64,000 nucleotides of DNA, taken from the NCBI GenBank assembly GCA_963795735.1, contig CAWCIU010000002.1:166217-230216 (forward strand), written 5' to 3'. Below the pieces are notes generated by a model. The model did no database searches and was not told the origin of the DNA. It saw nothing but the letters and a program-made list of their open reading frames with translations. This document shows, in pieces, positions 15,614 to 50,738 of the stretch. Numbering within the stretch: the stretch's first letter is position 1; each line of letters begins with the position of its first letter. The translations under genes and the position numbers were made by a program. The stretch comes from an uncultured Acidobacteriota bacterium. Lineage in GTDB: Bacteria; Acidobacteriota; Thermoanaerobaculia; Multivoradales; UBA5704.

Positions 15614-15626
15614 GTCGTCTCGCTCC

Positions 15627-15824
15627 CTACTTTCCCTGCCGCTCGTGCAGGATGGTCAACACGCGGGCCAGGTCCTTGCGCACCTGCCGCACGCGGGCCG
15701 GCTTCTCGAGCTGGCCGGTGACTTTCTGCAGGCGCAGGGCGAACAGCTGCTCCGAGAGATCGCGCTCCCGGTCGTTCAGCTCCTCGATCGTCTGATCACG
15801 CAATTGCGAAGCCTTCATCGTCAT
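15627..15824 (-). CDS. rpmC: 50S ribosomal protein L29
   Basis: ...[31 protein letters not shown]... Confidence 0.9.
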
Positions 15825-15833
15825 TTCCCTCGG

Positions 15834-16253: not shown

Positions 16254-16288
16254 GATTTCACGTTCTCCCGCTTACGATCGCCCGGGTG

Positions 16289-16939: not shown

Positions 16940-16948
16940 GTTCGTCTC

Positions 16949-17308
16949 CTACTTCCGCTTTTTGCCGTCACCCTTGCGGGTGTCGAGCTTGATCGTGATG
17001 TGGCTGAAGCGCTTCAGGACCCGGAACGCCCGGCCCATCGGCGCGGGACGCACCCGCTTCATCATCGGACCGCCGTCGACGAAGACCTCCTTGACGAACA
17101 GGCGGTCGACATCCACGTGGTCCTCCCGGTTCTCGGCGTTGGCGATGGCCGACTTCAGGCACTTCTGCACGTGCCGGGCCGCCACCTTGTTGGTCACCGT
17201 GAGGAGGTTGACCGCCTCCTGCACGCCCTTGCCCCGGATCAGGTCGGCCACCAGCCGCATCTTCTGCGCCGAGCCGGGGGCGTAGCGAAGCCGCGCTCTC
17301 ACTTCCAT
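16949..17308 (-). CDS. rplV: 50S ribosomal protein L22
   Basis: [27 protein letters not shown]... Confidence 0.95.
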
Positions 17309-17336
17309 CTTGGACTCTCCTCCTGGTCCCGACCCC

Positions 17337-17624
17337 TCACCGGGGACGGGCCCCCTTCTCGGCCTTCTTGCCGCTGTGTCCGCGGAAGGTGCGGGTCATG
17401 GCGAACTCGCCCAGCTTGTGGCCCACCATGTTTTCGCTTACGTACACCGGGATGAACTTCGCCCCGTTGTGCACCGCGATGGTGTGGCCGACCATCTCCG
17501 GCGTGACGGTGGAGCGGCGCGACCAGGTCTTGATCACCCGCCGCTCGCCCCGGTCGTTCATCGCCGCCACCTTGTCGGCGAGGTGATCGTCGATGAAGTA
17601 GCCCTTCTTGAGTGAACGCGACAT
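17337..17624 (-). CDS. rpsS: 30S ribosomal protein S19
   Basis: [15 protein letters not shown]... Confidence 0.95.
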
Positions 17625-17637
17625 GGTCCGTGGCTCC

Positions 17638-18465
17638 TTACTTCTTGTTCCGGCGGCGGACGATCATCCCATCCGTACGCTTGTTATTGCGGGTCTTGTA
17701 CCCCTTGGTCGGCAGGCCCCAGGGGGTGGTGGGATGGCGGCCGCCGGAGGTCCGGCCCTCGCCGCCGCCCATCGGATGGTCGACCGGGTTCATCGTCACG
17801 CCGCGATTGTGCGGCTTCCAGCCCAGCCAGCGATTGCGACCGGCCTTGCCGATCGACACGTTCTCGTGATCGAGGTTGCCCACCTGGCCGACGGTCGCGT
17901 AGCACTGGACGTGCACCCGCCGCACCTCGCCCGAGGGGAGCTTGACCTGCGCCCAGTCGTCGTCGCGCGCCATCAGCTGCGCGCCGCCGCCGGCGCTCCT
18001 CACCATCTGGCCGCCCTTGCCGATCTTGAGCTCGATGTTGTGGATCACCGTGCCCAGCGGGATCTTGCGCAGCGGCAGCGCGTTGCCGAGGTTGACCTCG
18101 ACGTTCTCGCCCGCCACCACCGAGGCGCCCACCTTCAGGCCGTCCGGCCAGAGGATGTAGCGCTTCTCGCCGTCCGCGTAGTGCAGCAGCGCGATGCGGG
18201 CCGAGCGGTTCGGGTCGTATTCGATGGTCGCGACCTTCGCCGGCACGCCGTGCTTGTCGCGCTTGAAGTCGATGATCCGGTAGCTCTGCTTGTGGCCGCC
18301 GCCGCGCCACCAGGAGGTGAGCTGGCCGCGGTTGTTGCGCCCGCCGCTCTTCGTCTTGCCGACGGTGAGCGACTTCTCCGGCTTGTCCCGGGTAATCTCG
18401 TCGAACGTCAGGTGCGTCTGGAACCGGCTCGACGAGTTGATCGGTTTTCTCTGCTTGATCGCCAT
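17638..18465 (-). CDS. rplB: 50S ribosomal protein L2
   Basis: [16 protein letters not shown]...[19 protein letters not shown]... Confidence 0.95.
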
Positions 18466-18468
18466 GGC

Positions 18469-18759
18469 TTACATTCCCTCGAAGAACTCGATCGGCTTCT
18501 CACCCTCGGCGAGCCGCACGTAGGCCTTCTTCCAGTCCGGCCGGCGGCCGACGAACCGCCCCTGCCGGCGCACCTTGCCGTGACAGTTGGCGATCCGGAC
18601 CTCGGCGACCCGGACCTTGAACTGCGCCTCGACGGCGCGCTTGACCTGGATCTTGTTGGCGTCGCGGGCCACCTCGAACGCCACGACGTTGCCCACTTCC
18701 CGCTGCTCCGTCGACTTCTCGGTGATCAGCGGACGGCGGATGATCTCCTGGATCTTCAT
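18469..18759 (-). CDS. rplW: 50S ribosomal protein L23
   Basis: Start trimmed to MKIQEIIRRPLITEKST (ATG 18757-18759). The upstream in-frame stretch overlaps rplD and is not L23-like. Confidence 0.9.
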   Translation of the reverse strand: MKIQEIIRRPLITEKSTEQREVGNVVAFEVARDANKIQVKRAVEAQFKVRVAEVRIANCHGKVRRQGRFVGRRPDWKKAYVRLAEGEKPIEFFEGM

Positions 18760-19382
18760 TTCGCCAGCACCTCCACCAGGCGGTGCAGCGCGTCCTCGCT
18801 GACCACCAGGAACGACCGGTCGACCACGTCGTAGACGTTGACCGCCAGCGCGTCGACCGCCTTGAGCGCCCGCACGTTGCGCGAAGCGAAGGCCAGCGAC
18901 TGGTTGTCGCGGCTGTCGATCAGCAGCGCCTTCTTCCCCTGCACGCCGAGCTTGCCGAGACGCTGCAGCAGCTCCTGCGTCTTCGGGCTGCCGACCTCCA
19001 GGCTCTCGACGACGACGATCTCCTGGTCGGCCAGCTTGCGCGACAGCGCCGACTTGAGCGCGTTCTTCTTCTCCCGCCGCGACAGGTCCTTGGCATGGCT
19101 GTGCGGCACCGGGCCGTGCACCGTGCCGCCGCCGCGCCACTTGGGGTTGCGCAGGTCCTTGACGCGGGCGCGGCCGGTCCCCTTCTGGCGCCACAGCTTG
19201 CGGCCCGAGCCGGAGACCTCCGAGCGGGTCTTCACCTTGTGGGTGCCCGAGCGCAAACCGGCGAGATAGGCCTGCACCGCCTCATGGATCAGGTGCGACT
19301 TGTACGGGTAGCCGAAGATCTCCTCCGGGAGGTCGATCTCGCGCACCTGCTGGTTATCGAAATTCTTCACTGCGATCTTCAT
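18756..19382 (-). CDS. rplD: 50S ribosomal protein L4
   Basis: MKIAVKNFDNQQVREIDLP... Confidence 0.95.
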   Translation of the reverse strand: MKIAVKNFDNQQVREIDLPEEIFGYPYKSHLIHEAVQAYLAGLRSGTHKVKTRSEVSGSGRKLWRQKGTGRARVKDLRNPKWRGGGTVHGPVPHSHAKDLSRREKKNALKSALSRKLADQEIVVVESLEVGSPKTQELLQRLGKLGVQGKKALLIDSRDNQSLAFASRNVRALKAVDALAVNVYDVVDRSFLVVSEDALHRLVEVLAK

Positions 19383-19409
19383 CGATTGATCCTCAAAGCG
19401 CGTTTACGC

Positions 19410-20036
19410 TCAGCTCCGCTTCGCCCGCCGGATCGCCACGTAGCCCGACATCGGACCGGGCACGGCGCCGCGCACGTAGATCAGGTTCTGCTCGGCGTCG
19501 ATCTTGACGATCTGCAGGTTCTTCGTCGTCACCCGCTCGCCGCCCATCCGGCCGGCCATCCGCATGCCCTTGAACACGCGCGAGGGGTAGGCGGACGAGC
19601 CGATCGAACCCGGCGCGCGGTGGAACATCGAGCCGTGCGAGCCGCGGCCGCCGCGGAAGCCGTGACGCTTCATCACGCCCTGGAAGCCCTTGCCCTTGCT
19701 CGTGCCGACCACGTCCACGTAATCCTTCTCGGCGAACATCGAGGCCTTGATCTCGTCGCCCGCCTTGAGCTCCTCGCCGGAGTCGAGACGGAACTCCTCG
19801 ACCTTCCTCACCGGCGCGATCCCGGCCTTGGCGAAGTGGCCGGCCTGCGGCTTATTGGGCTTCGCCGGCTTCCCCTCCACCAGGCCGATCTGCACCGCCT
19901 CGTAGCCGTCGGTGTCCATCGTCTTGCGCTGCACCACCAGACAGGGACCCGCCTGGATCACCGTCACCGGGATCACCGTCCCGTCGGCGACGAAGATCTG
20001 CGTCATTCCCATCTTGCGTCCCAGGATTCCGTCCAT
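19410..20036 (-). CDS. rplC: 50S ribosomal protein L3
   Basis: ...[11 protein letters not shown]... Confidence 0.95.
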
Positions 20037-20066
20037 CGCTTGGCTTCTCCTTACCGTCCCAGGCCG

Positions 20067-20384
20067 TTACTTGCCGAAGGCCTTGATCTCGACGTCGACG
20101 CCGGCCGGCAGCTCCAGCTTCATCAGGGCGTCGACCGTCTGGCTGGTGGGCTCGAAGATGTCGAGCAGGCGCTTGTGCGTACGGATCTCGAACTGCTCCC
20201 GCGACTTCTTGTCGACGTGCGGCGAGCGGTTCACCGTATACCGCGAGATGTGGGTGGGCAGAGGGATCGGCCCCACCACCCGGGCGCCGGTGCGCCGCGC
20301 GGTGTCGACGATCTCGTGCGTCGACGTGTCCAGGATACGGTAGTCGAACGCTTTCAGACGGATGCGGATTTTCTCGTTGACCAT
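20067..20384 (-). CDS. rpsJ: 30S ribosomal protein S10
   Basis: Start trimmed to [19 protein letters not shown] (ATG 20382-20384), giving 105 aa. Confidence 0.95.
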
Positions 20385-20419
20385 GACCTCTGCCCTTGTC
20401 TCCGAAGCAAAAAAACAGA

Positions 20420-21613
<1,194 letters not shown>

Positions 21614-21646
21614 GGTCTCTCCTCGAATTCCTGTCGCGCCCGCGGC

Positions 21647-23722
21647 TTACCCAGCCGCCTTGGCCACGATCTCTTCACTGACGTTCTTCGGGGCCTGCTC
21701 GTAGGCGGCGAACTGCATCGAATAGCTGGCGCGTCCCTGCGACAGCGACCGCAGGTCGGTCGCATAGCCGAACATCTCGGACAGCGGCACCCGGCAGGCG
21801 ATCACCTGGGAGTTGCCGCGCCCCTCCATGCTCTGGATCCGGCCGCGCCGCGAGGTGATGTCGCCGATGACCTCGCCCATGTAGTCCTCGGGGGTGGTCA
21901 CCTCGACCGCCATCACCGGCTCCATGAGGACCGGCCGCGCCCGCTTGCAGGCGTCCTGGAAGGCCATCGAGCCGGCGATCTTGAACGCGATCTCGGAGGA
22001 GTCCACGTCGTGGTAGCTGCCCTCGTAGAGGTCGACCTCGACGCCGGTGCACGGGAAGCCGGCGAGCGGCCCGGTCTCCAGCGCCTCCTTGATCCCCTGC
22101 TCGATCGGCTTGATGAACTCCTTGGGGATGGTGCCGCCGACCACCTTGTTGTTGAACACGAAGTCCCCCTCGGTCGTCGGGCGCATGTGGATCTTGGCGT
22201 GCCCGTACTGGCCGCGGCCGCCGGTCTGGCGGATGTACCGCCCCTCGCCGGAAGCCTCCTGGGTGATCGTCTCCTTGTAGGCGACCTGCGGCTTGCCGAC
22301 GTTGGCGCCGACGTTGAACTCGCGCACCAGGCGGTCGACGATGATCTCGAGGTGCAGCTCGCCCATGCCGGCGATGATGGTCTGGCCCGTGTCGCGGTCC
22401 GTATGGACGCGGAAGGTCGGGTCCTCCTGCATCAGCTTGGCGAGCGCGGTGCCCAGCTTCTCCTGGTCGGACTTGGTCTTCGGCTCGATCGATACCGCGA
22501 TCACCGGCTCCGGGAAGTTCATCGACTCGAGCACCACCGGGTGCTTGGGATCGCAGATCGTGTCGCCCGTGGTGACGTTCTTCAGCCCCACGGCCGCCGC
22601 GATGTCCCCCGCCCAGACCTCGCTGATCTCCTCACGCTTGTTGGCGTGCATCTTCAGCAGGCGGCCGATGCGCTCGTTGCTGTTGCGCTTCGAGCCGAGC
22701 ACCGAAGAGCCCGAGTCGACGTGGCCGGAGTAGACCCGGAAGAAGACGAGCTGGCCGACGAAGGGGTCGGTCATGATCTTGAACACCAGCCCGGAGAACG
22801 GCTCGCTGTCGTCCGAGTGGCGGATCACCGGCAGGCCGCTGTCCGGGTCGACACCCTCGATCGGCGGGATGTCGAGCGGCGAGGGAAGGTAGTCGACCAC
22901 CGCGTCGAGCAGCGGCTGGACCCCCTTGTTCTTGAAGGCGCTGCCGCAGATCACGGGCTGGACCTGGTTGCTGATCGTCGCCCGGCGCAGCGCGGCCTTG
23001 AGCTCGTCGTTGGTGACCTCCTCGCCCGAGAGGTACTTCTCGAGGAGCTGGTCGTCCGTCTCCGAGATCGCCTCGACCATCGCCTCGCGCATCTTGTGGG
23101 CCTGGTCGGCGAACTCCTCGGGGATATCGACCAACTCGTAGTCGGCGCCCATGGTCTCGTCGCGGTACAGGATCCCCTTCATGCGCAGGAGGTCGATGAC
23201 CCCCTTGTGCTGGTCCTCGCGCCCCCAGGGGAGCTGGATGACCACGGGATTGGCGGCCAGACGGGTGCGCATCATCGAGACCGTGCGCTCGAAGTCGGCG
23301 CCGATGCGGTCCATCTTGTTGACGAACGCGATGCGGGGCACGCGGTAGCGGTCAGCCTGGCGCCAGACCGTCTCCGACTGCGGCTCGACGCCGGCCACCG
23401 CGTCGAACACCGCGACGGCGCCGTCGAGCACGCGCAGCGAGCGCTCCACCTCGGCCGTGAAGTCCACGTGGCCGGGCGTGTCGATGATGTTGATGCGGTG
23501 CTTGGCCCAGAAGCAGGTGGTGGCGGCGGAGGTGATGGTGATGCCGCGCTCCTGCTCCTGCACCATCCAGTCCATGGTGGCGGTCCCTTCGTGGACTTCA
23601 CCGATCTTGTAGTTCACCCCGGTGTAGAACAGGATGCGCTCGGTGGTCGTGGTCTTGCCGGCATCGATGTGGGCCATGATGCCGATATTGCGCGTGTCTT
23701 TGAGTGGTGATTGCCGTGCCAT
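21647..23722 (-). CDS. fusA: Elongation factor G
   Basis: ...[25 protein letters not shown]... Confidence 0.97.
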
Positions 23723-23793
23723 GGTCTGACTTCTTTCCGCTCTGCTCGTCTACTTAGTCGCTGAACCAGCCGATATTTACCAGCGCGCTTTAT

Positions 23794-24264
23794 TTACCAA
23801 CGATAATGGGCGAAGGCCTTGTTGGCTTCGGCCATCCGGTGCGTGTCTTCCTTCTTCTTGATGGCGGAGCCGCGGTTCTCGGCGGCATCCGCGAGCTCGC
23901 CGGCGAGGCGGGCGCGCATCGTCTTCTCGCCGCGGCCTTGCGAGGCCGCGATAATCCAGCGCATCGACAGCGCCAGCTTGCGGGCCGGGCGCACCTCGAC
24001 GGGGACCTGGTAGGTCGAGCCGCCGACGCGGCGCGACTTGACCTCGACCGCCGGCTTGACGTTCTCGATCGCCTTCTTGAACACCTTCATCGGATCGTCG
24101 TTGGTGCGCGTCCGGATCGCCTCCAGGGCGTCGTAGAGGATGCGCTCGGCGACCGACTTCTTGCCCTGCTTCATCACCACGTTGACGAACTTGGTGACCA
24201 GCTGCGAGTTGTACAGCGGATCCGGCAGGATCTCGCGCTTCGGGACTTCTCTCCGCCTGGGCAT
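23794..24264 (-). CDS. rpsG: 30S ribosomal protein S7
   Basis: [28 protein letters not shown]... Confidence 0.95.
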
Positions 24265-24267
24265 GTC

Positions 24268-24654
24268 TTACTTGCCTCCCTGAGCCTTCGGCCGCTTGGC
24301 GCCGTACTTGGAACGGCCCTGACGCCGGGCCTGCACGCCGACGGCGTCGAGCGTGCCGCGGATGACGTGGTAGCGCACCCCCGGGAGATCCTTCACGCGG
24401 CCCCCGCGGATCAGCACGATCGAGTGCTCCTGCAGGTTGTGGCCGACGCCGGGGATGTAGGTGGTCACCTCGATGCCGTTGGTGAGGCGAACGCGGGCGA
24501 CCTTGCGGAGCGCCGAGTTCGGCTTCTTGGGCGTCTGGGTGTACACGCGAACGCAGACCCCCCGCTTCTGGGGAGAGGCCTGCAGCGCGGGACTCTTGGT
24601 CTTGGTCTCCACGCGCTCGCGGCCCTTGCGCACCAATTGATGAATCGTAGGCAT
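24268..24654 (-). CDS. rpsL: 30S ribosomal protein S12
   Basis: Start trimmed to [13 protein letters not shown] (ATG 24652-24654), giving 128 aa. Confidence 0.95.
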
Positions 24655-25232
24655 GCTTCCAGATCTCCTCGACCCGTTGTCCGATGTTCTTCCGCGGAGC
24701 GACAAAGCCCCGAGCCCACCCAAGGATGGGATCGTCGGCCCATACTCCGGCCCCGAACGGTGTTCAGGGTATTGGTCTTCGGTTTGAAGACTTAACCGCC
24801 CCCGTCCCTGGCGGGACCATCGGCGGCGAAACCCGCAGACTCTACATTGAGAGGCCGGCGCGCGTCAACAGACGCCGCGTCCTGACCTCGATCAGGTCGG
24901 CCAGCGGGACGCGCAGTATACCCGGAGCGCCCTGTCTCCGCAAGGCCGGCGGTTTGAGCCCCCTACCTCCACCTGCAGGCGGGAAACCCACCCTCCGGCC
25001 CGAAACAGCACGGGCACGGACCCCAAAACGACTGCGAGGGGGATTGTATTCCAAGTCGGGGGCGGGCGCCAGGGGGTGGGATGGGCCGTGGCCCCGGCTT
25101 CTATATATAGAGGATGGGCCGGCTGGAATGGACTCCTTCCCTTCTCATGCCTCTTGCCGACCGGGCCGCATCGCTTTGCGAGACGACCGCAGGTCGCCCT
25201 CTTGAGGGTTCGCCTTAGCGATTAAGCACTGC
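24655..25232 (-). promoter_or_regulatory. 578-bp non-coding leader and promoter region of the str operon; its distal edge abuts the low-GC island
   Basis: No credible ORF on either strand. High GC, with a TATATATA tract at 25104-25114. The exact promoter could not be assigned. Confidence 0.35.
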
Positions 25233-25802
25233 TCAAGCCGAGCGAAGTCCTCTGAACGGGAGCCTGCCTTGTAGGTTCATTAGGAGAGAATTTGTGGAGA
25301 AGGGCGGCCCGACAAATTCATGGGTCGACCACTCTTCCGAATCTTGAAGTGGTACGAACCCAAGAATATTGTTATCTTGAAATAGAGCAAAGATCTCCGA
25401 ATTGTAGCGAGGAATGAGCAGGAGGCGGATGGTACCGTTGCCTAGGATTCCTTCCAGACGGTTCAGCGTGGCGTCGAAGCGTTGTGCGATTTCAGAGCGC
25501 ACGAGCTTGATCAAGCGGCACTTTTGATGCTCGACTATCGAGCGGGCATAGAGAAGCGGTTGGCCGTTGACCTTAATTTGATGGTGCCAGAGCACCTTCT
25601 CGTCTCGGATGAAGCCCGATATGGGATCCTCCACCGAGAATTCTTCCGGAAGGTCGAGCGTAACCACGCGACAGCTCTCGTGCCAAGTGTAGGCCGCGTC
25701 CGGATTCAATTCTGGAGTGTCTTCGAGGAGGCTTCGCAAGGGAGCGGCTAGCCCCGCAACAAACTGTGCTTTTAAAGGGTCAGGGAAGACATCGAATTGC
25801 AT
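25233..25802 (-). CDS. Hypothetical protein (189 aa), last gene of the island operon
   Basis: Start moved to ATG 25800-25802 (MQFDVFPDPL...). A perfect AAGGAG Shine-Dalgarno lies 4 nt upstream, whereas the longer ORF start at 25847 has none. GC is about 50%, against about 67% for the flanks. Confidence 0.55.
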   Translation of the reverse strand: MQFDVFPDPLKAQFVAGLAAPLRSLLEDTPELNPDAAYTWHESCRVVTLDLPEEFSVEDPISGFIRDEKVLWHHQIKVNGQPLLYARSIVEHQKCRLIKLVRSEIAQRFDATLNRLEGILGNGTIRLLLIPRYNSEIFALFQDNNILGFVPLQDSEEWSTHEFVGPPFSTNSLLMNLQGRLPFRGLRSA

Positions 25803-25810
25803 GGGGCTCC

Positions 25811-26374
25811 TTAAGAATTGTGGATGTGAGTCCACGTACCGACCCATGGGCCGTAAGAGAGGTCTTTGACTAGACCCTGGTACGTTATTTCTGCTGGGCC
25901 GCTCTTGGGATTGGGATCGCGCACCTTGAGAACCATATCGACTTCTGTGGTTCCCTGGCAGCCGACGACGAGGACGACATGACCACCGCCCGTGAAATCC
26001 GGGCAGCTCTCCATGTTTCCGAGCCAGACCTCGATTGGGCCAGCGCCGAGCTCGGTACGAATCTGGTCGGGCGTCAAGGTTCCGCAGCGAGGCTCCACAT
26101 TGGGAAAGCCGAAATGTTCCCAGAGGCCCTTGATCCTGGCCGGAGGCACGGCCTCATTGCAGGAAGGCTCGTTCGTGCAACACTGGCGTGCCGGAAAGGC
26201 CACCTGAGCCACAGCGCACTGCGCCGGAGCCAAGTTTTTCAGGACCATGCAGAAACAGGTGACCCAGCACCAGAGATCCCTGATCTGCCGGATCCTCGGG
26301 ATATCCAGCCTCACGGGCTGATCGAGCACCGCTGCCGGGTGGACCAGCGTGCCTGCGGCAACGCGCAGGCTCAT
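25811..26374 (-). CDS. C39-like (papain-fold) cysteine peptidase
   Basis: Q-x5-C motif QIRDLWCWVTCFCMVL followed by GGGHVVLVVG...VRDP, the Gln/Cys...His...Asp arrangement of C39-like peptidases. GGAGGG Shine-Dalgarno. The ATG overlaps the upstream stop (ATGA). Confidence 0.5.
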   Translation of the reverse strand: MSLRVAAGTLVHPAAVLDQPVRLDIPRIRQIRDLWCWVTCFCMVLKNLAPAQCAVAQVAFPARQCCTNEPSCNEAVPPARIKGLWEHFGFPNVEPRCGTLTPDQIRTELGAGPIEVWLGNMESCPDFTGGGHVVLVVGCQGTTEVDMVLKVRDPNPKSGPAEITYQGLVKDLSYGPWVGTWTHIHNS

Positions 26375-27381
26375 GGTTTCCCTCCGCCGCCGGCCGCAGT
26401 AAAGGCCGCTAGGGCGCCTTTTAAGTTCGACGCGAAACCCTTGAAGCCGCCTCCGCCGCAGGTGGTCCGTAAGCAGCCGAGACCGCCTTCCTTGGCCATG
26501 AACGGCAAGGGGCAGGGCTCCTGCTCCATTCCGGAGAGCATGTAGAGCGCCTTAAAATCAATATCCACAGTGCCTACGGGGATCTTCCCTTCCGCGAACC
26601 GGAGAACTTCGTCCATCTCTCGGTTCTTGATCTCGATGGTGACCGTTTCCTCTCCCACAGCGTCGTCCTTGAAACGCAGGACACGAGGATCTTGACCGTC
26701 TTTGAATAAGTGAATCGCCAGGGGCACCGTGAGCGGATCGATCCGGAGCGCAATAGCGTGGGCCACGGCCTGCTTTGCCTTAAGCGGATCGTTTGGGGAG
26801 ACGTGGAACCCCCAGATGCTCGGCCGCTCAGTCGGTGTAGCAGCAAGATCTGGAATTAGGGAATAAGTCATCAGGTCCCCTTGGTCAATAATCACATGCG
26901 CTGCTATATCCCCTTGCGTCGGTAACGGACCCTTGAAGAAACTTTCGTTGTTGTTTCCGAACACTCCTGAGCCAGGCAGGAGGTCCTCCATCGCAGGAAG
27001 CCATTTTAAGGAGGTCTTTTGTTGCTCGGTGGCTAGGCTGGGATCTTCGAGCGTCGCCTGATCAATCTCGATAAAGACAGGATTGAAGGGTTTCGGCGCT
27101 CCGGTCTCAATCCGGATCTGGTGACCGGATAGTTGAATCAATCCGAACTCCCGCCCACCGTCCTTGCGGAAGCGGAGCGTAATGAGATCCTCATCCACCT
27201 CGAAGAGATCGGTCGGAAACTGCAGCACGGAATAATGAGGCGTGAGCGTCACGTCATTGACGGTAAGCCCCTCGGAAGCTTCCGGAAGAAGAGCCGACCA
27301 GGAGGGCGCGGGCGCCGGGTCGTCGGCGAGCCGGTTAGGGACATAGGCACAGACACCGGAGAAAACGATCTGGAAATTCAA
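26371..27381 (-). CDS. Hypothetical protein (336 aa) with a Gly-rich C-terminus (...TTCGGGGFKGFASNLKGALAAFTAAGGGGKP); candidate protease substrate or effector
   Basis: Likely start is TTG 27379-27381 (MNFQIVFSGVCAYVP...), with AAGGGAGG 7 nt upstream. The ORF-track start at 27402 would translate the Shine-Dalgarno itself. The TTG overlaps the CHAT gene stop (TTGA). No recognisable family. Confidence 0.5.
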   Translation of the reverse strand: MNFQIVFSGVCAYVPNRLADDPAPAPSWSALLPEASEGLTVNDVTLTPHYSVLQFPTDLFEVDEDLITLRFRKDGGREFGLIQLSGHQIRIETGAPKPFNPVFIEIDQATLEDPSLATEQQKTSLKWLPAMEDLLPGSGVFGNNNESFFKGPLPTQGDIAAHVIIDQGDLMTYSLIPDLAATPTERPSIWGFHVSPNDPLKAKQAVAHAIALRIDPLTVPLAIHLFKDGQDPRVLRFKDDAVGEETVTIEIKNREMDEVLRFAEGKIPVGTVDIDFKALYMLSGMEQEPCPLPFMAKEGGLGCLRTTCGGGGFKGFASNLKGALAAFTAAGGGGKP

Positions 27382-29013
27382 TGAGGTTCCTCCCTTAGGC
27401 AAAAGTTCGTGGTCAGTCCGCCGATCAGTTGAAAGGCGGGCCAGCCGCTTTTGTGGACCGAGCCGCGCCCCTCCTCGTGGAGCAGACGGAGCTGAGCGGC
27501 GCGGAGAGCCGCCACGGGAGGCAATCCCTCTCGCAACGACTTATAGAAAGTGTCGAAAAGCTTCTGGGCTTCACCGTCCTGGACGCGCCAGAGGCTGCCC
27601 AGAACGGCTGGGACTCCGGCCGTCAAGAAAGGCCGAGCTAGGGTCAGGGCTCCAGGCCAGGCAGCGTCCGGTGCTGCCGCCGTGCTACAGGCAGAGAGGG
27701 CAACCAGTCTCGTGCGCGGGAAAGAATGCGCCTGAAGATCACTGCCAGTGACCTCTCCCGAACCTCCTCCGGGAGGTTGTGCAAAGAGGAGGACGGAATC
27801 GAGAGGCCGGTCGGGCGAGGCCACGGCGTGCCCTGCGAAATGGATCCAGGTGGCTTCAGGCAGTTGCTGAAAGAATGTCCGAGAGACCGCCGCAGAGCCG
27901 GTCATCAGGACTGTCGAGCCCGGGAAGAGGTCGCTGATGCGCTCGCCCTCCCGGCGCGAACTTTCGAGGGCACCGAGTTGCAGCATAGAGGAGGGCGAAG
28001 TCGGGTCGGTGACAACCAGGATCCGGGGCTTGCCGTGCTCCCGTGCGAGTTGCTGTTCTCGTTTGGTAGCGTAGGCGAAGAAGGTAGCACTCGGGGCCAC
28101 CATGAGAGCGGTGTCCTCAATTAAGAAGCGGCAGGTCGCGGCACTCCGCAGGGATGAAAATGAGATCCGGAAGAGAGACTTATCGGGGACTACAACGACG
28201 GTCCTATGCCGGCCCGGCTCGAACCAAGGCGAGACTAGGATTTGGTATAGCCTTGCTGAGGCCTGTTCCCAGGGATGGCCCTGCCAGTTATCCCCTACGA
28301 AGTGTGCAACCAAGCGCTCAATCTCTCCGCGCTTGAGGGGCACTTCGTGAAAGTCCATAGAGGTGGCGGTCCTCGTCCAGATGAGCAAGCGATCCGTTAG
28401 GAGGGAGTACTCAACAAGGACGCCCTGTGGGGGCAACGCCGCTGAGAGATCCTCTGGTGTCACGGGTCGGATGGGCTGTGGATTGGAGTACCGCGGGATG
28501 GGCCAGTTCACAATCTTCGACCTCTCGACGAAGTAGACGGCCTTCTCCGGATTTTTCTCTTCAACTGCCTCCAGACGCACCATCTGATCGAAGGCACTTT
28601 CGACCAAACCCGCGAGAGAGAGCCGGTACGCATCCTCGGTCAGGCCTTTGCCGAGCCGCTCGTGGATTTGGAGGCTGAGGAGGAGATTGGCCTTCTCTCT
28701 CGTCGTCTGGCCAAGCTTCCGATAGGCTTGGGCGCGGGCCTCATAGGCCAGCAGTCGGTTAGGCCAATGGCCTGTCTTCTGGTAACGGGCCACCGCGCGG
28801 TCGAGAAATTGGACAGCCGCAGCGGGATCTTTCTCTAGAATGATGGCTCCCGATATTAAGCCGGCGTCCGCATAGGACTGCTCGGTCCGCGAGGGATCGG
28901 CGATCTTCGCCGTTTGTAGGGCTGCGGCCTGGAGATCCCGCGCGGCATCGGCGAGTTGGCCGAAGCGAGCATGGAGGAGAGCCCTCCACAAAAGCACGTC
29001 GGCGCGGACGCTA
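27378..29013 (-). pseudogene. CHAT-domain (caspase-like) protease, the C-terminal two-thirds of a TPR-CHAT gene split by IS630
   Basis: CHAT His/Cys dyad: ...ATWIHFAGHAVAS...RTRLVALSACSTAA... The first 5 codons of the ORF-track call (MTHYT) are IS terminal-repeat sequence. The reading frame continues into the TPR fragment once the IS is removed. Confidence 0.8.
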
Positions 29014-30181
29014 GTGTAGTGGGTCAAACAGATGTGTCCTTAACCAGAGCCTGCCGAGCGCGTGTGACCTTTTCAAGGATGTCGCTTGCGGTCTTCGTCC
29101 AGATAAAGGGTTTGGGATCTTCGTTGTGACGAGCCAGATACTCATGGATCGCCGTAACCAGATCTGCGACGCTGCGAAAGATGCCCCGACGCAACCGGTT
29201 TTCTGTCAGGTCACGGAAGAACCTTTCGACCATGTTGAGCCATGAGGCGCTGGTTGGGGTGAAATGAATCCTGAACCGCGGATGGCGAGCCAGCCAAGCT
29301 TGAACCTTCGGATGCTTGTGAGTCGCATAGTTGTCCGCGATCAGATGAATCTCCGGGCTCTTCGGGGTCTCTCGGTCAATGAGGCTCAGGAACTTAATCC
29401 ACTCCTGATGGCGATGCCGCGGCATGCAGGTCCCGATCACCTTCCCGTTCAGCGTATTGAGCGCAGTGAACAGTGTCGTCGTTCCGTGGCGCTTGTAGTC
29501 GTGGGTCATCGTGCCATGGCGGCCCGGCACAAGGGGAAGGCCTGGCTGGGTGCGGTCGAGCGCCTGAATTTGGCTTTTTTCATCGACAGAGAAAACCAGC
29601 GCATGCTCTGGAGGGTTCAGGTAAAGACCGACGACATCCTCCAACTTCTCCACGAACCTCGCATCCCGACTCAATTTGAAGGTTCGAGTCAGGTGAGGCT
29701 TCAGGCCATGACGTCTCCAGACACGACCGATCGTGCTCGGGCTCAGCCCCATCATCTTGGCCAGACTACGGGTGCTCCAGTGCGTTCCCGCCACTGGCGT
29801 CTCTTGCGTCGTCTTGCGCACGATCTCCCGAATTACATCCTCGCCAATCGAAGGCAGCCTCCCGGCCCGAGGGGCATCCTTCAAGATGCCGACGGTCCGC
29901 TTCTCGGCAAAACGACGGCGCCAAACACCAACTGTCCGTCGCGCTGCACCAGAAATCTCAGCAATCTCTCGGTTCTGCTTGCCTTCAGCAGCCAGCAGGA
30001 CGATTCTCGCCCTCTCTGCCACGCGCACGGATACCCTACGGCCACGTGCAAGCTTCTCAAGCTCAGCCCTCTCCTCAGGCGAAAGGACTATCGAGACAGC
30101 TACCTTCATGTTCCCTCCTGGAGGTATTCCCTACCAGGAAAGGATAACAGAAGTTGCCGAACATCGGACCCACTACACTAG
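29011..30181 (-). mobile_element. IS630-family insertion sequence, copy 1 (1171 bp including flanking TA)
   Basis: Terminal inverted repeats TAGTGTAGTGGGTC / GACCCACTACACTA, flanked by TA. 100% identical over its length to copy 2 at 49568-50738. Confidence 0.9.
29024..30109 (-). CDS. IS630-family DDE transposase (361 aa)
   Basis: N-terminal HTH followed by a DDE domain (…[12 protein letters not shown]…[12 protein letters not shown]…WLNMVERFF…). Confidence 0.9.
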
Positions 30182-31832
30182 GGTTGTCCAGCGAGCTCGA
30201 GGCCTGAACCGCGGCATCCTGATAGAGGTAGGAGAGCTCAGCATCCCCCGAGCGCAGAGTGAAGTCTGCCAGAGTATTGTAAATTTGTGTCTCTCGATAG
30301 GCAAGCCCTAGCCTACGATTCTGGACGAGGGCCTGATAGAGGTACTTCCAGGCCCTTTGGCGATCTCCGAGTTCGTTGTAGCTCTCTCCCAGCAGCGAGT
30401 TGACGAAGGCGATATGCTCGGCATCAGAGAAGTGCTCGAAGATTGTCAGAGCCTCGTGGAGGCACCGACGTGCCTGCTCGGGGTTCCCGGACACGTTCTC
30501 AATCGAGCCCTGGCGATGAAGGATCTTTGCACGCAGATAGAGGTAAGAGTGACCGGTGATCTTCCGGCTCAGATCTCGCAACCGATCTCTGGCCTGCTCA
30601 TACTTCCCCTGGGCATAGAGGCTGGCAGCTTCGTAGTCGACCGCGAGGTCCTGGAACGCCTCGGCGTTCCCACGAAATCCTCCCAAAGCCGTGCCGAGCC
30701 CGACGAGCGCGCTTCCAGGGCGTGACCGCTCATGGTCCTCGATAGCCCCTCGGAATGCCACGATCCCCTTGATTAACCGTGCGGTTTGCTGGGTCGAGCC
30801 GGTTTGGACCGTAGACTCGATCTCGGAGATTCCGTCCGCGAGTAGGGTGTCCCCCCATTCTTCTTTATATAGATCGGCGACGATTCGAGCTGCGTGGAGG
30901 TGACGATTTGCGGCGACCCAGTCACCGGTTCTCCATGCCTCCCCCCAAGCGGGAAGCAGAGAGGTAGTAACCCAACGCAAGGCACTGGACGGTACGGCTT
31001 TGGCGAAGATAGCAGCCCGGGCATCGATCAGCTGCCCCTCCGAGAGGTCGCGATCTAGATTACGAGTATTCCAGGTCTCGACCAAGGTAGGGGTCTCCAG
31101 GCGCCGTAGGCGTTCTTGGGCTTCTCGTCTCCAGGGAGAGGCTGGTGCTTCCTTGTGTAGGTAGTACTCCCAAGCCTCGCGGGCGGCTCGGGGAAGTTGT
31201 AAAGACTCCAAGATCCAGGCGCGGTTGAACAGAACCTCCGGGCGGTCGGGAGCTAGTTTGAAGGCACGCTCGACAGCATGGAATGCGTCCTGGATGAGGC
31301 GGGGATTCTGGGTTAGAGACGCCTTCCAGCCGTCAAGGGCGGCCAAATCGCTCCAGAGAAGAGCATTTGCCGGATCGGCTTCGGTCGCAGAACCGAGTTG
31401 ATCGATAGCTGCATCGAGTCCTGCGCCTTTCGGGTCCTCCACTAAATACCAGAGGGCGAGTCTGCGATGCTTTCCAGCCGTACCTGAATGTTCGACACCG
31501 CGTCTCAGTTCTGTTCCCTCGGAGAGCAAGGCTTGCGACGGTCGTGCCTCGTCCTGCAAAGCTGGACAGTGCCAGCGCTCAAGGAGCCCTGAGGTTTCCT
31601 CACGACATGGGCTAGCGGACTGCCGTGTAGACAACCGGGGATAGATCTGCCGATAGCTATCGAAGAGCCGCTCGAATTTTGCCGGGGGGTGGCAATGAAG
31701 CAGGAGACCATAGATTAGAGGGACGAGGAAAAAGAGCCTCGCGCGCAGAACAGAGTTCTTGTCTGGCTGGCTTCTTGCGCCTTTCGTGGCCTTCGGAAGG
31801 CCCAGACCAAGGCGATCCTGCGCGTCCAACAT
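30182..31832 (-). pseudogene. N-terminal TPR-repeat part of the TPR-CHAT gene, truncated by IS630
   Basis: ATG 31830-31832. An N-terminal TM segment is followed by TPR-like repeats. The last ~35 codons of the ORF-track call lie inside the IS. Confidence 0.75.
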
Positions 31833-32296
31833 GTGCCGAATTGTGGACCCCCATTTTAAGATTACAGTTAGATTCTAACAGCGTCCTGTCAAGTAAGTCT
31901 ATCGGGAACGGTTAAATTCCGAGCTAGATCATCTCGAATTCCTCAAAGCTGTCCGTCTAAGATCAAGACGGGGTGTCCAAGTCTCTTTCCCGCCTTGGAG
32001 GCCTTCTTTCCTTGCCGATCGATCTCAAGCCCTGTTCTGGGCGGCGAGGGCTCCCTCCCGGCAGGGGAGAGGCTTGGACCCGTCGAATCCGGGATGGGCA
32101 TCTGCGTGCAACTGCGATCTACACGTCTCTCATCCAGTAGGAGGAACGCAGAGTGGTAGCGCCTCGCAGCCTTGAACGCTTCTCAGGAGACTCCAAGCTC
32201 TTCTCCCGGAGAGGCTTGCGCCCTACGGTGCCCACAACTCCTATAGAATTCCAGCCATCACCAGATCCCAAGGTGAGATCCCGTGTACGACGCCCC

Positions 32297-33097
32297 ATGG
32301 CCACCCTCCCCAAATCCCCCGGCGACCTGACTCCTGAGCAGCTCTTCCTTGGGCACCTGAAGCTCGTCGAGGAAATCGTGGCCTATGGGTGCCGGCGGTC
32401 CCGCTTCAGCTCTCAAGAGGCGGAGGACTTCCGGGGGGAGGTCATGGTGAAGCTCATCGAGGGGGATTACGCCGTATTGCGCCTGTTCGAGGAACGGAGC
32501 GAGATGCGGACCTATCTCGCGACCGTCATCAACCACCTGCTCCTCGACTACCAGAACCACATCTGGACCAAATGGCGCCGGTCGGCGGAAGCGGGACGGC
32601 TCGGTCCGATCGCGGAGCGGCTGGAGCGGCTGATCGTCCGGGACGGGTTCTCCTTCAGCGAGGCCTGTCACAAGCTCTGGGCAGAGGGGGTGGAGATGTC
32701 CGAGGCGGAGCTCGCGGAGATCAAGGGCAAGCTCCCCCCCAGGTTCATCCGCCGCTTCGTCGCGGAGGACACGATCCAGGCCATGGCTGACCGGGAGCTC
32801 CCGCCCGACAAGCAGTTGGAGCAGAAGGAGCGGAGCGCCCTGGCAGTGCGGGTCCTCAGGATCGTTCACCGGGAGATCCAGGCGCTCCCGGCGGAGGAGA
32901 AGATCCTCGTCCAGATGCGGCTGGAGCTCAAGGTGGCCGACATCGCCCGGATCCGGAAGCTGGACCAAAAAGCCCTCTACCGGCGATTGAAGAAGATTTA
33001 CGAGAAGCTGGAGAAGGCGCTCGCAAAGCAGGGAATCCGGCGCAAGGACATCAAGGAGCTTCTGGGCGACCTCCAGCCCGGCCTCCTCGATTTCTAG
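32297..33097 (+). CDS. ECF-type RNA polymerase sigma factor
   Basis: Start trimmed to MATLPKSPG (ATG 32297). Region 2 (...RTYLATVINHLLLDYQNHIW...) and region 4 HTH (ALPAEEKILVQMRLELKVADIARI...). Confidence 0.7.
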   Translation: MATLPKSPGDLTPEQLFLGHLKLVEEIVAYGCRRSRFSSQEAEDFRGEVMVKLIEGDYAVLRLFEERSEMRTYLATVINHLLLDYQNHIWTKWRRSAEAGRLGPIAERLERLIVRDGFSFSEACHKLWAEGVEMSEAELAEIKGKLPPRFIRRFVAEDTIQAMADRELPPDKQLEQKERSALAVRVLRIVHREIQALPAEEKILVQMRLELKVADIARIRKLDQKALYRRLKKIYEKLEKALAKQGIRRKDIKELLGDLQPGLLDF

Positions 33098-33174: not shown

Positions 33175-34182
33175 ATGCAGGAATCTACACCTATAAAGAG
33201 GACGCGCTCCTCCGAGCACTGCCCGACCGACAAGCAGCTGGCCGCCTATATCGACGGCGCCCTCGGCAAGGCCGAGAGCCAGTACGTCACCGAGCATCTC
33301 GCCTCCTGCCGGGATTGCTACGACCTCTATATGGAGACGGCGCACTTCCTGGTGGACTCCAGCGCTGCGACGCCGGAGGACGCGAAGCATGAATGGGGCG
33401 AGGTCGCCAATCGGCAGGTGGCGAGGTTCCCTGTCCCCATCGAGAGGGCCCGCCCCCTCGCGCAGTGGCTCTCCATCGCCGCGCTCCTCCTCGTCGGAGC
33501 CGGCGGCGGGACCTATTTCCAGCTCCTGCAGGCTCCCCCGGCGCTCATGCCTCCCGCACTGATCGGCCCCATTCCCAATCCGGCGGCGCAGATCCCGAAC
33601 TTCTGGAAGGGGCCGACGTACCGGGGAGAGGGAGGCGGGGACGAGGCGAAGCTGAACGACGCCTCGTTCCGGATGGGGGTCCAGTCCGTCAATCTCCAGG
33701 TGAGTCTGAAGGCGGGCAACGGCCCGGAGGCCGAGGACGGGGTCGCCCGCATTCTCGGAATCCTCAAGGGCCAGCCCTTCACCGACGAGCTTCAGAAGGG
33801 CTACACCGGGATCACCCTCGCCGTGGAGAACCGGAAGGCTCCGGCCGACCTCCTCCCCGAGGCCTCCCGTCTGGCCGGGTTGTCGCGGGACGCGTTCGAC
33901 ACGACCTATCTCGACCTCGGCCAGTGGGTGGAAGCGGGGCGGCTGGCGGCGCTCTCCCATGATCCCTCCTTCTTCCAGCAGTCCGACGCCCGGAGCTTCC
34001 TCCGGCGCTCGATCTGGCGCTCGAAGGTGGGACTCGGCAAGACGAAGCTCGATCCTCCCACCCTTCAGCACCTGGAACGGATCGCCGGCATCGTCTCCAA
34101 GGGCGACCTCCAGGCCTCCGATTACGCCAGGCTGAAACAGCCGTTCGACGAAATTCTCAAGATTCACTACCCCGACACGTAA
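33175..34182 (+). CDS. Zinc-finger (zf-HC2) anti-sigma factor, single-pass membrane protein
   Basis: H-x3-C-x2-C motif EHLASCRDCYDLY, TM segment WLSIAALLLVGAGG, and a periplasmic domain. Immediately downstream of the ECF sigma gene. Confidence 0.7.
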   Translation: MQESTPIKRTRSSEHCPTDKQLAAYIDGALGKAESQYVTEHLASCRDCYDLYMETAHFLVDSSAATPEDAKHEWGEVANRQVARFPVPIERARPLAQWLSIAALLLVGAGGGTYFQLLQAPPALMPPALIGPIPNPAAQIPNFWKGPTYRGEGGGDEAKLNDASFRMGVQSVNLQVSLKAGNGPEAEDGVARILGILKGQPFTDELQKGYTGITLAVENRKAPADLLPEASRLAGLSRDAFDTTYLDLGQWVEAGRLAALSHDPSFFQQSDARSFLRRSIWRSKVGLGKTKLDPPTLQHLERIAGIVSKGDLQASDYARLKQPFDEILKIHYPDT

Positions 34183-34197: not shown

Positions 34198-34450
34198 GCC
34201 GTGCCGAAGCTTCGGCGGCTCAGCGAAGCTTCGGCGGCCCAGCGAAGCTTCGGCAGCTCGTCGGGAGCTTCGGCAGCTCAGCGAAGCTTCGGCAGCGTAG
34301 CGAAGCTTCGGCAGCGCAGCGAAGCTTCGGCGGGCCAGCGAAGCTTCGGCAGCCCAGCGCAGCTTCGGCAGGCCAGCGAAGCTTCGGCAGGCCGTCGTAA
34401 GCTTCGGCAGCCCAGCGAAGCTTCGGCAGCGTAGCGAAGCTTCGGCACGG
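34198..34450. repeat. Tandem array of 13 units of a 19-20 bp repeat (consensus CAGCGAAGCTTCGGCAGCN), each with the 10-bp palindrome CGAAGCTTCG
   Basis: Counted directly between the anti-sigma stop (34182) and the end of the convergent acyltransferase gene (34455). Confidence 0.9.
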
Positions 34451-48908: not shown

Positions 48909-49571
48909 ATGAGCAAGAACACCCACCGCATCACCATGGCCGCCCTGGCGGGCCTCCTGGCGCTGACCCCGGCGTTCGCCCAGAGCACGGGGACCGCCAC
49001 CGGCTCCATGTCCGGCTCGGCCGCCAAGAGCACCAAGAAGAAGACCACCACCACCACGAGCACCTCCTCCTCGATGCTCAGCGCCGCCGACACCAAGTTC
49101 GTCAAGGCCGCGGCCTCGGGCGGCATGGAAGAGGTCGAGCTCGGCAAACTGGCGGCGCAGAAGGCCTCCAATCCCGACGTCAAGAGCTTCGGCCAGAAGA
49201 TGGTCGACGACCACACCAAGGCCAACGACCAGCTCAAGCAGGTCGCTTCCCAGAAGAACGTGACCCTGCCGGCGGGCATGAACAACATGCAGAAGCACGA
49301 CCAGGCCAAGCTCGCCAAGCTCTCCGGCGCCGCCTTCGACCGGAGCTACGTCAGCATGATGGTCAAGGACCACAAGAAGGACGTCGCCGACTTCCAGAAG
49401 GAATCGACGAGCGGCAAGGACACGGACGTCAAGAGCTTCGCCTCGACGACCCTGCCCACCCTGCAGGACCACCTGAAAATGGTGCAGGACCTCTCCTCGA
49501 GCCTCAACAAGAAGAAGACCGCGAGCACGACCACCAAGACCACCACCAAGAAGAGCAGCTCGGGCCGCTAG
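48909..49571 (+). CDS. DUF4142-family secreted protein, paralog 1
   Basis: Signal peptide plus a Ser/Thr-rich linker. Core ...DTKFVKAAASGGMEEVELGKLAAQKASNPDVKSFGQKMVDDHTKANDQLK... The TAG stop incorporates the IS630 target TA. Confidence 0.8.
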   Translation: MSKNTHRITMAALAGLLALTPAFAQSTGTATGSMSGSAAKSTKKKTTTTTSTSSSMLSAADTKFVKAAASGGMEEVELGKLAAQKASNPDVKSFGQKMVDDHTKANDQLKQVASQKNVTLPAGMNNMQKHDQAKLAKLSGAAFDRSYVSMMVKDHKKDVADFQKESTSGKDTDVKSFASTTLPTLQDHLKMVQDLSSSLNKKKTASTTTKTTTKKSSSGR

Positions 49572-50738
49572 TGTAGTGGGTCAAACAGATGTGTCCTTAA
49601 CCAGAGCCTGCCGAGCGCGTGTGACCTTTTCAAGGATGTCGCTTGCGGTCTTCGTCCAGATAAAGGGTTTGGGATCTTCGTTGTGACGAGCCAGATACTC
49701 ATGGATCGCCGTAACCAGATCTGCGACGCTGCGAAAGATGCCCCGACGCAACCGGTTTTCTGTCAGGTCACGGAAGAACCTTTCGACCATGTTGAGCCAT
49801 GAGGCGCTGGTTGGGGTGAAATGAATCCTGAACCGCGGATGGCGAGCCAGCCAAGCTTGAACCTTCGGATGCTTGTGAGTCGCATAGTTGTCCGCGATCA
49901 GATGAATCTCCGGGCTCTTCGGGGTCTCTCGGTCAATGAGGCTCAGGAACTTAATCCACTCCTGATGGCGATGCCGCGGCATGCAGGTCCCGATCACCTT
50001 CCCGTTCAGCGTATTGAGCGCAGTGAACAGTGTCGTCGTTCCGTGGCGCTTGTAGTCGTGGGTCATCGTGCCATGGCGGCCCGGCACAAGGGGAAGGCCT
50101 GGCTGGGTGCGGTCGAGCGCCTGAATTTGGCTTTTTTCATCGACAGAGAAAACCAGCGCATGCTCTGGAGGGTTCAGGTAAAGACCGACGACATCCTCCA
50201 ACTTCTCCACGAACCTCGCATCCCGACTCAATTTGAAGGTTCGAGTCAGGTGAGGCTTCAGGCCATGACGTCTCCAGACACGACCGATCGTGCTCGGGCT
50301 CAGCCCCATCATCTTGGCCAGACTACGGGTGCTCCAGTGCGTTCCCGCCACTGGCGTCTCTTGCGTCGTCTTGCGCACGATCTCCCGAATTACATCCTCG
50401 CCAATCGAAGGCAGCCTCCCGGCCCGAGGGGCATCCTTCAAGATGCCGACGGTCCGCTTCTCGGCAAAACGACGGCGCCAAACACCAACTGTCCGTCGCG
50501 CTGCACCAGAAATCTCAGCAATCTCTCGGTTCTGCTTGCCTTCAGCAGCCAGCAGGACGATTCTCGCCCTCTCTGCCACGCGCACGGATACCCTACGGCC
50601 ACGTGCAAGCTTCTCAAGCTCAGCCCTCTCCTCAGGCGAAAGGACTATCGAGACAGCTACCTTCATGTTCCCTCCTGGAGGTATTCCCTACCAGGAAAGG
50701 ATAACAGAAGTTGCCGAACATCGGACCCACTACACTAG
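49568..50738 (-). mobile_element. IS630-family insertion sequence, copy 2; identical to copy 1 and in the same orientation
   Basis: Offset of exactly 20557 bp from copy 1 across the element. The transposase ORFs are identical. Confidence 0.9.
49581..50666 (-). CDS. IS630-family DDE transposase (361 aa), copy 2
   Basis: Identical protein to 29024-30109. Confidence 0.9.

Follow-up and report, generated by a model that had tools for sequence, protein, structure and literature searches.

Two adjacent open reading frames (ORFs), one coding for tetratricopeptide repeats (TPR) and the other for a CHAT domain, flank an insertion sequence (IS) in the genome of an uncultured Acidobacteriota bacterium of the Thermoanaerobaculia, and the question is whether they are two genes or one gene that the element has divided. 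The locus lies in a stretch of 64,000 nucleotides (nt) of contig CAWCIU010000002.1 (assembly GCA_963795735.1, positions 166,217 to 230,216), here termed the window, in whose coordinates all positions are given unless another contig is named. The original prediction, made from the sequence alone, held that an IS630 element had split a single TPR-CHAT gene and that its removal in silico would restore one reading frame. The observation was confirmed at 27378-31832 and the interpretation is supported: homologous proteins span both halves, related loci are continuous across the junction and the transposase matches the IS630 family model. With high probability, an IS630-family IS of 1165 bp has inserted in a CTAG of a single 1095-codon gene for a scaffold-TPR-CHAT protein and thereby split the gene. 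The features of the locus are as follows.

30180..31832, minus strand: 5′ part of the TPR-CHAT gene, codons 1-551 (predicted cytoplasmic tail, transmembrane (TM) helix at about residues 27-45, scaffold and first half of the TPR region)
27378..29012, minus strand: 3′ part of the TPR-CHAT gene, codons 552-1095 and stop (second half of the TPR region, CHAT domain at residues 803-1082)
29014..30178, minus strand: IS630-family insertion sequence, copy 1, 1165 bp, ends fixed by identical copies elsewhere
29024..30109, minus strand: transposase gene, 361 amino acids (aa), N-terminal helix-turn-helix (HTH) domains and DDE_3 catalytic domain
29014..29025: inverted repeat of 12 bp closing the IS on the side of the transposase 3′ end, GTGTAGTGGGTC, matching the complement of 30167-30178 at every base
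30167..30178: the other terminal repeat, on the upstream side of the transposase gene, GACCCACTACAC
29012..29013: TA to the left of the IS, one copy of the target-site duplication
30179..30180: TA to the right of the IS, the second copy of the duplication

Restoration of a single reading frame

On the minus strand the ORFs follow one another in the order 585 aa (31832-30075), 361 aa (30109-29024) and 549 aa (29027-27378). The N-terminal ORF runs into the IS as far as 30075, its 585 residues being made up of 551 native and 34 IS-encoded ones. Deletion of 1167 bp (the IS and one TA, in any of three equivalent registers) turned 27378-31832 on the minus strand into a single ORF of 1095 codons with no stop other than the terminal one. 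The segment proposed for removal, 29014-30180, is indeed these 1167 bp and joins the ORFs in frame, and the hand-translated junction, ...ASSSLDNP followed by SVRADVLLWRALLHARF..., proved correct. With the exact bounds of the IS the junction contains neither a frameshift nor a stop. At 1095 aa the restored protein is slightly longer than the approximately 1090 aa first estimated.

Two further details of the prediction were refined. The serine codon AGC had been described as re-formed from the retained TA; the codon is right, and more precisely the target TA straddles the codons of Pro551 (CCT) and Ser552 (AGC). The CHAT ORF was said to begin inside the left terminal repeat, and it does start at the end of the IS. 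Its opening TTG (29025-29027) lies at the inner margin of the 12-bp repeat, not deep within it, and overlaps the transposase stop TGA (29024-29026) in the sequence TTGA. Four features were absent from the prediction: the likeness of the protein to the membrane-anchored DdvA of Myxococcus xanthus, the position of the gene at the head of a four-gene operon, the strain-specific island around it, and CTAG, not TA alone, as the target.

Continuity in homologous proteins and loci

A search with the restored protein found three close homologues (P0001-P0003) of 1065-1076 aa, with 67-68% identity over 96-97% of the length. About 100 further proteins of approximately 1000-1100 aa, at 23-32% identity, also span both halves of the restored protein. 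Nearly all homologues are 880-1240 aa long, and all but two (P0068 and P0087) have a CHAT domain. Thirty of them could be aligned through residue 552 with no gap, and the motif LDNPS(F/V)xADVLLWRALL is kept in the close ones. On the DNA level, window positions 25460-29008 and 30177-31675 match adjacent positions of the orthologous locus L004 (5843/5841). The three orthologous loci, L003-L005, with approximately 70% nt identity, are uninterrupted where the window has 1167 extra bases. At the target these loci read CCG AGC and the window reads CCT AGC, a synonymous G to T change that would therefore have created the CTAG used by the IS. The two gene halves are free of secondary lesions.

An AlphaFold2 model of the restored protein, based on a 60-sequence alignment, showed one body with a mean pLDDT of 91.2 and a pTM of 0.89. 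Residue 552 is in this model the first residue of a TPR helix in the 551-567 region, and the superhelix is predicted to run unbroken through it with a local pLDDT of about 96.

Bounds and target site of the insertion sequence

The IS reads on the minus strand, in the same direction as the disrupted gene, and has a GC content of 0.575 against 0.669 for the window. Two other copies were found with 100% identity, one in the window and one at positions 1747-2911 of L006, a metagenome contig unrelated to the window contig.

49571..50735, minus strand: second copy of the IS, identical to copy 1, with TA at 49569-70 and 50736-37

In all three copies the identity stops at the same two bases and a TA is present on both sides (3/3). 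The boundaries are thus exact and not inferred, since three identical copies end at the same bases. The insertion had been called recent, which agrees with the 100% identity of the three copies and the lack of secondary lesions in the gene halves, although the event is undatable.

The predicted TA target was found on both sides of every copy, and the actual target is wider. Reconstructed empty sites of the three copies read gacgCTAGggt, ccgCTAGatc and gtCTAGatg, so that CTAG is present in 3/3; the empty site of the split gene reconstructed in silico is …GACAACCCTAGCGTCCGC…. In the window without the IS there are only 28 CTAG among 764 TA dinucleotides, and approximately 187 would be expected from base composition, an under-representation of about 7-fold. 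For two random insertions into TA, the probability of meeting CTAG both times is p~0.0013; chance is excluded as an explanation of the CTAG targeting, as only 28 of the 764 TA sites are CTAG. For IS630 itself, Table 1 of PMC2577343, citing Tenzen & Ohtsubo 1991, records CTAG as the target with a 2-bp duplication.

Half of the CTAG sites of the window (14/28) are within a low-GC island of about 7 kb that also holds the split gene, and this share of a rare site plausibly explains why the IS landed there. Several of the CTAG sites in the backbone fall at gene boundaries. The second copy sits on the TAG stop codon of a DUF4142 gene (48909-49571), between this gene and a DUF4142 paralogue at approximately 50893-51558. 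Here the duplicated TA and the first G of the IS together re-form the TAG, which leaves the gene unharmed.

Family assignment of the transposase

The transposase matched the NCBIfam model NF033545 (transpos_IS630) over all of its 299 positions (1-299) with 285.7 bits, the cut-off being 100. In Pfam it matched DDE_3 (70.2 bits) and HTH_23, HTH_29, HTH_32 and HTH_28. A catalytic triad, assigned by motif, consists of D176 (SVDEKS), D259 (IADNYA) and E295 (NMVERF), and the D-E spacing of 35 corresponds to DD35E. By the model match, DD35E, TA duplication, CTAG target, short repeats and a length within about 1.1-1.2 kb, the element belongs to the IS630 family.

Among the annotated transposases of a plasmid collection, the closest were of the ISBmu8 and ISAzs31 families with 58-64% aa identity, those of the ISBmu8 family having 60-64%. 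Since these nearest relatives are no closer, the element is a new IS630-family member in this comparison, distinct by the usual ISfinder criterion. The exact transposase sequence was recorded on 8 contigs. Together with three identical copies at unrelated sites this would make the IS evidently a recently mobile one.

Alternative explanations

The TPR and CHAT ORFs might normally be separate genes, with the IS in the spacer between them and the in-frame join a coincidence. Proteins with only TPR or only CHAT do exist generally, and one of the homologues, P0087 (690 aa), is TPR-only. Against this, the homologues are almost all single proteins of 880-1240 aa with CHAT (exceptions P0068 and P0087), 30 of them cross residue 552 without a gap, the orthologous DNA is continuous at the junction, and AlphaFold2 packs the two halves as one superhelix with a protease (pTM 0.89). 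The original prediction had named normally separate homologues as the finding that would refute it; they are not separate, and we regard this explanation as having next to no chance of being right. A second alternative is an assembly artefact, in which the IS was misplaced or the flanks misjoined and the real genome carries an intact gene: exact copies of the IS are found on 8 contigs, such repeats being a classic source of misassembly, and the source contig (258,914 bp) is derived from a metagenome. Both flanks belong to the same gene, however, and show the expected TA duplication in a CTAG, which is not expected of a random misjoin. Furthermore, a Logan short-read contig (L007, ERR11523670) matches window 24797-29034 with 99.98% identity; it leads from the operon across the same junction of gene and IS and stops after 21 nt of the element. 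A misjoin is unlikely because this independent contig shows the identical junction, and an artefact is accordingly considered very improbable.

A different reading accepts the insertion and sees it as a rewiring. The IS end would supply an AAGGA resembling a Shine-Dalgarno sequence together with the TTG start, the CHAT domain with half of the TPR region would be translated without its membrane anchor by coupling to the transposase, and the downstream operon would still be expressed. In favour of this, the TTG (29025-29027) shares bases with the TGA (29024-29026) and keeps the frame of the gene from codon 552 onward, AAGGA is located 9 nt upstream of it, the operon's own genes are likewise coupled by 4-nt overlaps (27378-27381 and 26371-26374), and IS and operon are co-oriented. 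These points are drawn from sequence features only, however, and the outward TTG is present in every copy of the IS whatever its neighbour. A fragment without TM anchor, scaffold and half of the TPR superhelix would, judged from the model, be unlikely to fold or localise natively. The promoter and terminator scan gave counts not above those of shuffled controls, with 31901-31872, upstream of the TPR-CHAT gene, as a candidate only. Coupled translation of the fragment is conceivable, a functional product is unlikely, and the rewiring as a whole is improbable, if less so than an artefact.

Some observations also weigh against the insertion into a single gene. An exact 26-mer across the restored site, which would represent the empty site in the same strain, had no match in metagenome contigs. 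The closest protein on record is only 68% identical to the restored one, and the independent assembly confirms the left junction only. That the element transposes, that the full-length protein is lost and that the downstream genes suffer polarity are all inferred from sequence.

A scan of genome contigs with the restored protein gave two partial relatives only (30-31% identity), so that the source species is not represented in that collection, and an exact look-up of the 585-aa fragment in the contig index returned no record.

Operon genes and a conserved partner family

Three genes follow the TPR-CHAT gene on the same strand.

26371..27381, minus strand: second operon gene, 336 aa, start overlapping the CHAT stop (TTGA), no Pfam family
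25811..26374, minus strand: third operon gene, 187 aa, overlapping the gene before it in ATGA
25233..25802, minus strand: fourth operon gene, 189 aa, no Pfam or NCBIfam match

The order of these genes is conserved in L003-L005 and L007. Orthologues of the 336-aa protein, with 54-57% identity, are encoded directly downstream of the TPR-CHAT gene in L003-L005, and a hidden Markov model of the partner family matched the gene directly after the TPR-CHAT gene in 8 of the 10 loci examined. A universal partner gene is for this reason not supported. The family has 72 representatives among 1.84 billion proteins, is approximately 310-360 aa long, has no Pfam model and displays the motifs FSGxCAYVPN at the N-terminus and KNRE(M/L)(D/E)E. 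Neither a signal peptide nor a TM segment was found in the partner proteins. The AlphaFold model of the 336-aa partner, made with a 5-sequence alignment, was unusable (mean pLDDT 43). The partner-family genes are located as follows.

26371-27381 in the window
8589-9599 in L003
9327-10256 in L008
9635-10585 in L009
9433-10500 in L010
723-1673 in L011

The 187-aa protein matched Peptidase_C70 (18.5 bits) and C39_2 (17.7 bits) in Pfam, both just below threshold, and is possibly a papain-like cysteine peptidase; its orthologues in L003-L005 are 58-67% identical. For the 189-aa gene, 50-52% identical genes are present at the same position in L003 and L004. PADLOC gave no matches for the two gene halves and five neighbouring genes, so that the operon is not a catalogued defence system. 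Large TIR-domain proteins, one of them TIR-NB-ARC-TPR, adjoin the TPR-CHAT operons in L003 (11596-14292), L004 (1477-4131) and L008 (11814-14096), which hints at a defence-island setting.

The island and its surroundings

The low-GC island, noted over 25076-32150, has a GC content of 0.53-0.63, and the GC content at third codon positions is approximately 0.70 against approximately 0.93 in neighbouring host genes. It is located directly upstream of rpsL-rpsG-fusA-tuf. EF-Tu and S7 of the window belong to protein clusters, at ≥90% identity, that bear the name Thermoanaerobaculia. Nine sibling Thermoanaerobaculia contigs (L011-L019) were 96-98% identical in nt over the str operon (rpsL-fusA), and most of them lost all similarity to the window at approximately 25076, the left border of the island and the only one that is defined. 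In place of the window genes, L011 has a different operon of CHAT and partner genes and L014 an ATPase_2/PIN pair. The disrupted operon is therefore accessory and situated in a strain-variable hotspot, as the siblings mostly diverge at this point and carry other cargo. For the right border, a metagenome scan with the anti-sigma protein encoded at 33175-34182 found nothing. Rfam and tRNA scans around the island and in the window were empty, and hence no tRNA-linked integration site is assigned. On the minus strand at 5000-24723, downstream of rpsL-rpsG-fusA-tuf, there is a long run of small genes with high GC at third codon positions, which looks like the S10, spc and alpha ribosomal protein operons. 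From this resemblance the island would abut a highly conserved and highly expressed region of the chromosome.

Domains and fold of the restored protein

The restored protein matched the Pfam CHAT model PF12770 with 161.8 bits (cut-off 24) at residues 803-1082, and TPR repeats were also found. H946 (FAGHA) and C993 (LSACS) do not vary among 60 homologues and line up with the corresponding residues of DdvA, a protein of Myxococcus xanthus. With this intact His/Cys dyad the protein is predicted to be caspase-like, a peptidase of clan CD. A hydrophobic helix at about residues 27-45 follows a short positively charged N-terminus of about 26 residues, which suggests the membrane topology given above.

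A profile of the family matched chain B of PDB 8ROT (DdvA) with an E-value of 2.9e-39, extending from the TM segment of DdvA (69) through the scaffold (392) and again over the CHAT domain (834-982). In Foldseek the best match was 8rot_A (E 7.6e-21, TM-score 0.66, approximately 1085 columns), ahead of Csx29 and separases. A single-sequence search of the PDB with the restored protein returned a designed TPR only, and the profile was needed to reach DdvA. DdvA consists of a zinc anti-sigma (ZAS) domain, a TM segment, scaffold, TPR and CHAT, holds DdvS, a sigma factor of the extracytoplasmic function (ECF) type, and has been proposed to clip itself in trans before cleavage by RseP (PMC11506125; PMC6061681). 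In the DdvA structure paper, anti-sigma factors of this type are reported only from Myxococcota and one Comamonas.

In the restored protein no zf-HC2 domain was matched by Pfam, and the ORF could not be extended upstream of 31832. PF13490 is carried by 11 of the 120 homologues listed. True fusions of zf-HC2 (ZAS), TPR and CHAT were observed in metagenomic proteins, namely P0018 (L009 6001-9414), P0099, which is named Thermoanaerobaculia, and nine others.

Neighbouring sigma and anti-sigma genes

Two genes for a sigma factor and an anti-sigma factor are located on the other side of the TPR-CHAT gene.

32153..33097, plus strand: gene for an ECF-type sigma factor, pointing away from the TPR-CHAT gene, likely true start ATG 32297
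33175..34182, plus strand: gene for an anti-sigma factor of 335 aa with a zf-HC2 (ZAS) domain, which scored 28.9 bits in Pfam (cut-off 22.2)

The sigma factor matched TIGR02937 (sigma70-ECF) with 46 bits (cut-off 42.9) and is 36-41% identical to the sigma factors encoded beside TPR-CHAT genes in L009 and L010. The anti-sigma factor is similar to that of L010 and to the ZAS N-terminus of the L009 TPR-CHAT protein. In L009 the ZAS domain is thus fused to the CHAT protein, and in L010 sigma and anti-sigma genes are divergent as in the window. A nearby sigma gene was present in 3 of the 9 loci with a readable upstream flank, and none was seen in the flanks of L003-L005, L008, L021 and L022. The linkage is facultative, because the closest orthologues (L003-L005) and these other three loci have no sigma gene nearby, and a universal linkage is not supported. 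An acyltransferase as a positional marker that the window would share with L021 and L022 was discarded, as the proteins of these loci had no detectable similarity to that of the window. The spacer between the anti-sigma and acyltransferase genes contains a tandem array (34205-34447) of 12.7 copies of the 19-bp unit CGAAGCTTCGGCAGCCCAG, each with the palindrome CGAAGCTTCG, and the array gives a long spurious ORF on the minus strand.

A tentative reading, less likely to be right than wrong in its entirety, is that the knocked-out gene heads a module in which the functions of DdvA are split. An anchored scaffold-TPR-CHAT sensor or protease without an anti-sigma domain would act with the partner of approximately 320 aa, and some genomes would add a separate ZAS anti-sigma factor and an ECF sigma factor. 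The protease would act in trans, as site-1 protease or as a sensor releasing the sigma factor, and such modules, including the ZAS-TPR-CHAT fusions, would be common in Acidobacteriota (Thermoanaerobaculia). If true, signalling of the DdvA type extends well beyond its reported range in Myxococcota and Comamonas, and the IS insertion either locks the sigma regulon in this strain or unlocks it by removing a steric shield. An extracytoplasmic protease is hard to reconcile with partner proteins having no signal peptide or TM segment.

Consequences and significance

The sequence of events may be depicted as follows: The IS would have transposed by cut-and-paste into the TA of the CTAG at Pro551-Ser552 (CCT AGC), duplicating the TA and dividing the 1095-codon gene. 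The broken gene would be the first of a translationally coupled operon of four genes, and its product a membrane-anchored scaffold-TPR-CHAT protein, predicted to be a caspase-like cysteine protease with the fold of the extracytoplasmic part of DdvA. The full-length protein would no longer be made and an anchored N-terminal stump of 585 aa would remain. At best, an anchor-less C-terminal fragment of 549 aa may be produced from the TTG at the transposase stop. The three downstream coupled genes would suffer polarity unless transcription passes through the co-oriented IS.

Accessory genes are routinely split by IS insertions, and the event is an ordinary IS knock-out of a well-documented kind. 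In itself it is of little weight; for annotation, the two ORFs should be merged as one pseudogene and the IS annotated. The locus supplies a cleanly bounded and, by its identical copies, evidently active IS630-family element from Thermoanaerobaculia with a well supported CTAG specificity. The depletion of CTAG in the host backbone would explain the horizontally acquired island as a preferred landing pad. The residual interest is in the target, a module of a little-studied DdvA-like TPR-CHAT protein and a conserved partner, outside the phyla from which such proteins have been reported. Once restored, the gene provides a complete DdvA-like protein from Acidobacteriota with a model of high confidence. 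TPR-CHAT proteins of the DdvA-like kind, the forms fused to ZAS and the partner gene occur more widely than the one characterised case would suggest, which offers a starting point for studies of ECF-sigma signalling and phage defence.

Comparison with known systems

The IS resembles IS630 of Shigella sonnei and the ISBmu8-like subgroup (ISBmu8, ISAzs31), which share with it a length of approximately 1.1-1.2 kb, a single transposase ORF with N-terminal HTH and DDE (DD35E) domains, short terminal repeats, a 2-bp TA duplication and insertion at CTAG. The end of ISBmu8, TA CTGTAGTGCGTC, resembles the 5′ end of the window IS, TA GTGTAGTGGGTC, and in both elements the transposase stop is at the inner edge of the terminal repeat. 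The host differs, being a Thermoanaerobaculia metagenome-assembled genome for the window IS and proteobacteria for IS630 and the ISBmu8-like elements.

Csx29 of the type III-E CRISPR Craspase and separase are, like the window protein, caspase-like His/Cys proteases with TPR and CHAT. The profile recovered them at E ~1e-6 and Foldseek at E 1e-15 to 1e-11, but with TM-scores of only 0.3-0.5, far weaker than DdvA, and both are soluble and cytoplasmic. A Csx29/Craspase reading, suggested by the combination of TPR and CHAT, was rejected because the similarity is weaker than to DdvA and neither Cas7-11/gRAMP nor Csx30/31 is adjacent. The neighbours of the locus are ribosomal protein genes, the ECF sigma, anti-sigma and acyltransferase genes and three genes without an assigned family, and the only array nearby, the 19-bp tandem repeat, is not CRISPR-like.

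The window protein differs from DdvA in several respects. Sequence identity between the two is approximately 16%. DdvA has a cytoplasmic ZAS domain, whereas the window protein has none and the ZAS is encoded separately at 33175-34182. Unlike in DdvA, no CBASS or CRISPR genes were among the neighbours examined at the window locus, a conserved partner gene of approximately 320 aa follows the TPR-CHAT gene, and a sigma/anti-sigma pair is absent from the vicinity of the closest orthologues (L003-L005). The architecture is nevertheless shared: in DdvA (8ROT/8RW5) and the restored protein alike, an N-terminal TM segment precedes a helical scaffold, the TPR superhelix comes next and a CHAT domain with the His/Cys dyad forms the C-terminal part. 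In the window an ECF sigma gene, a candidate cognate, lies next door. The window protein is thus DdvA-like in fold and, by the ZAS criterion, not an anti-sigma factor of the DdvA type.

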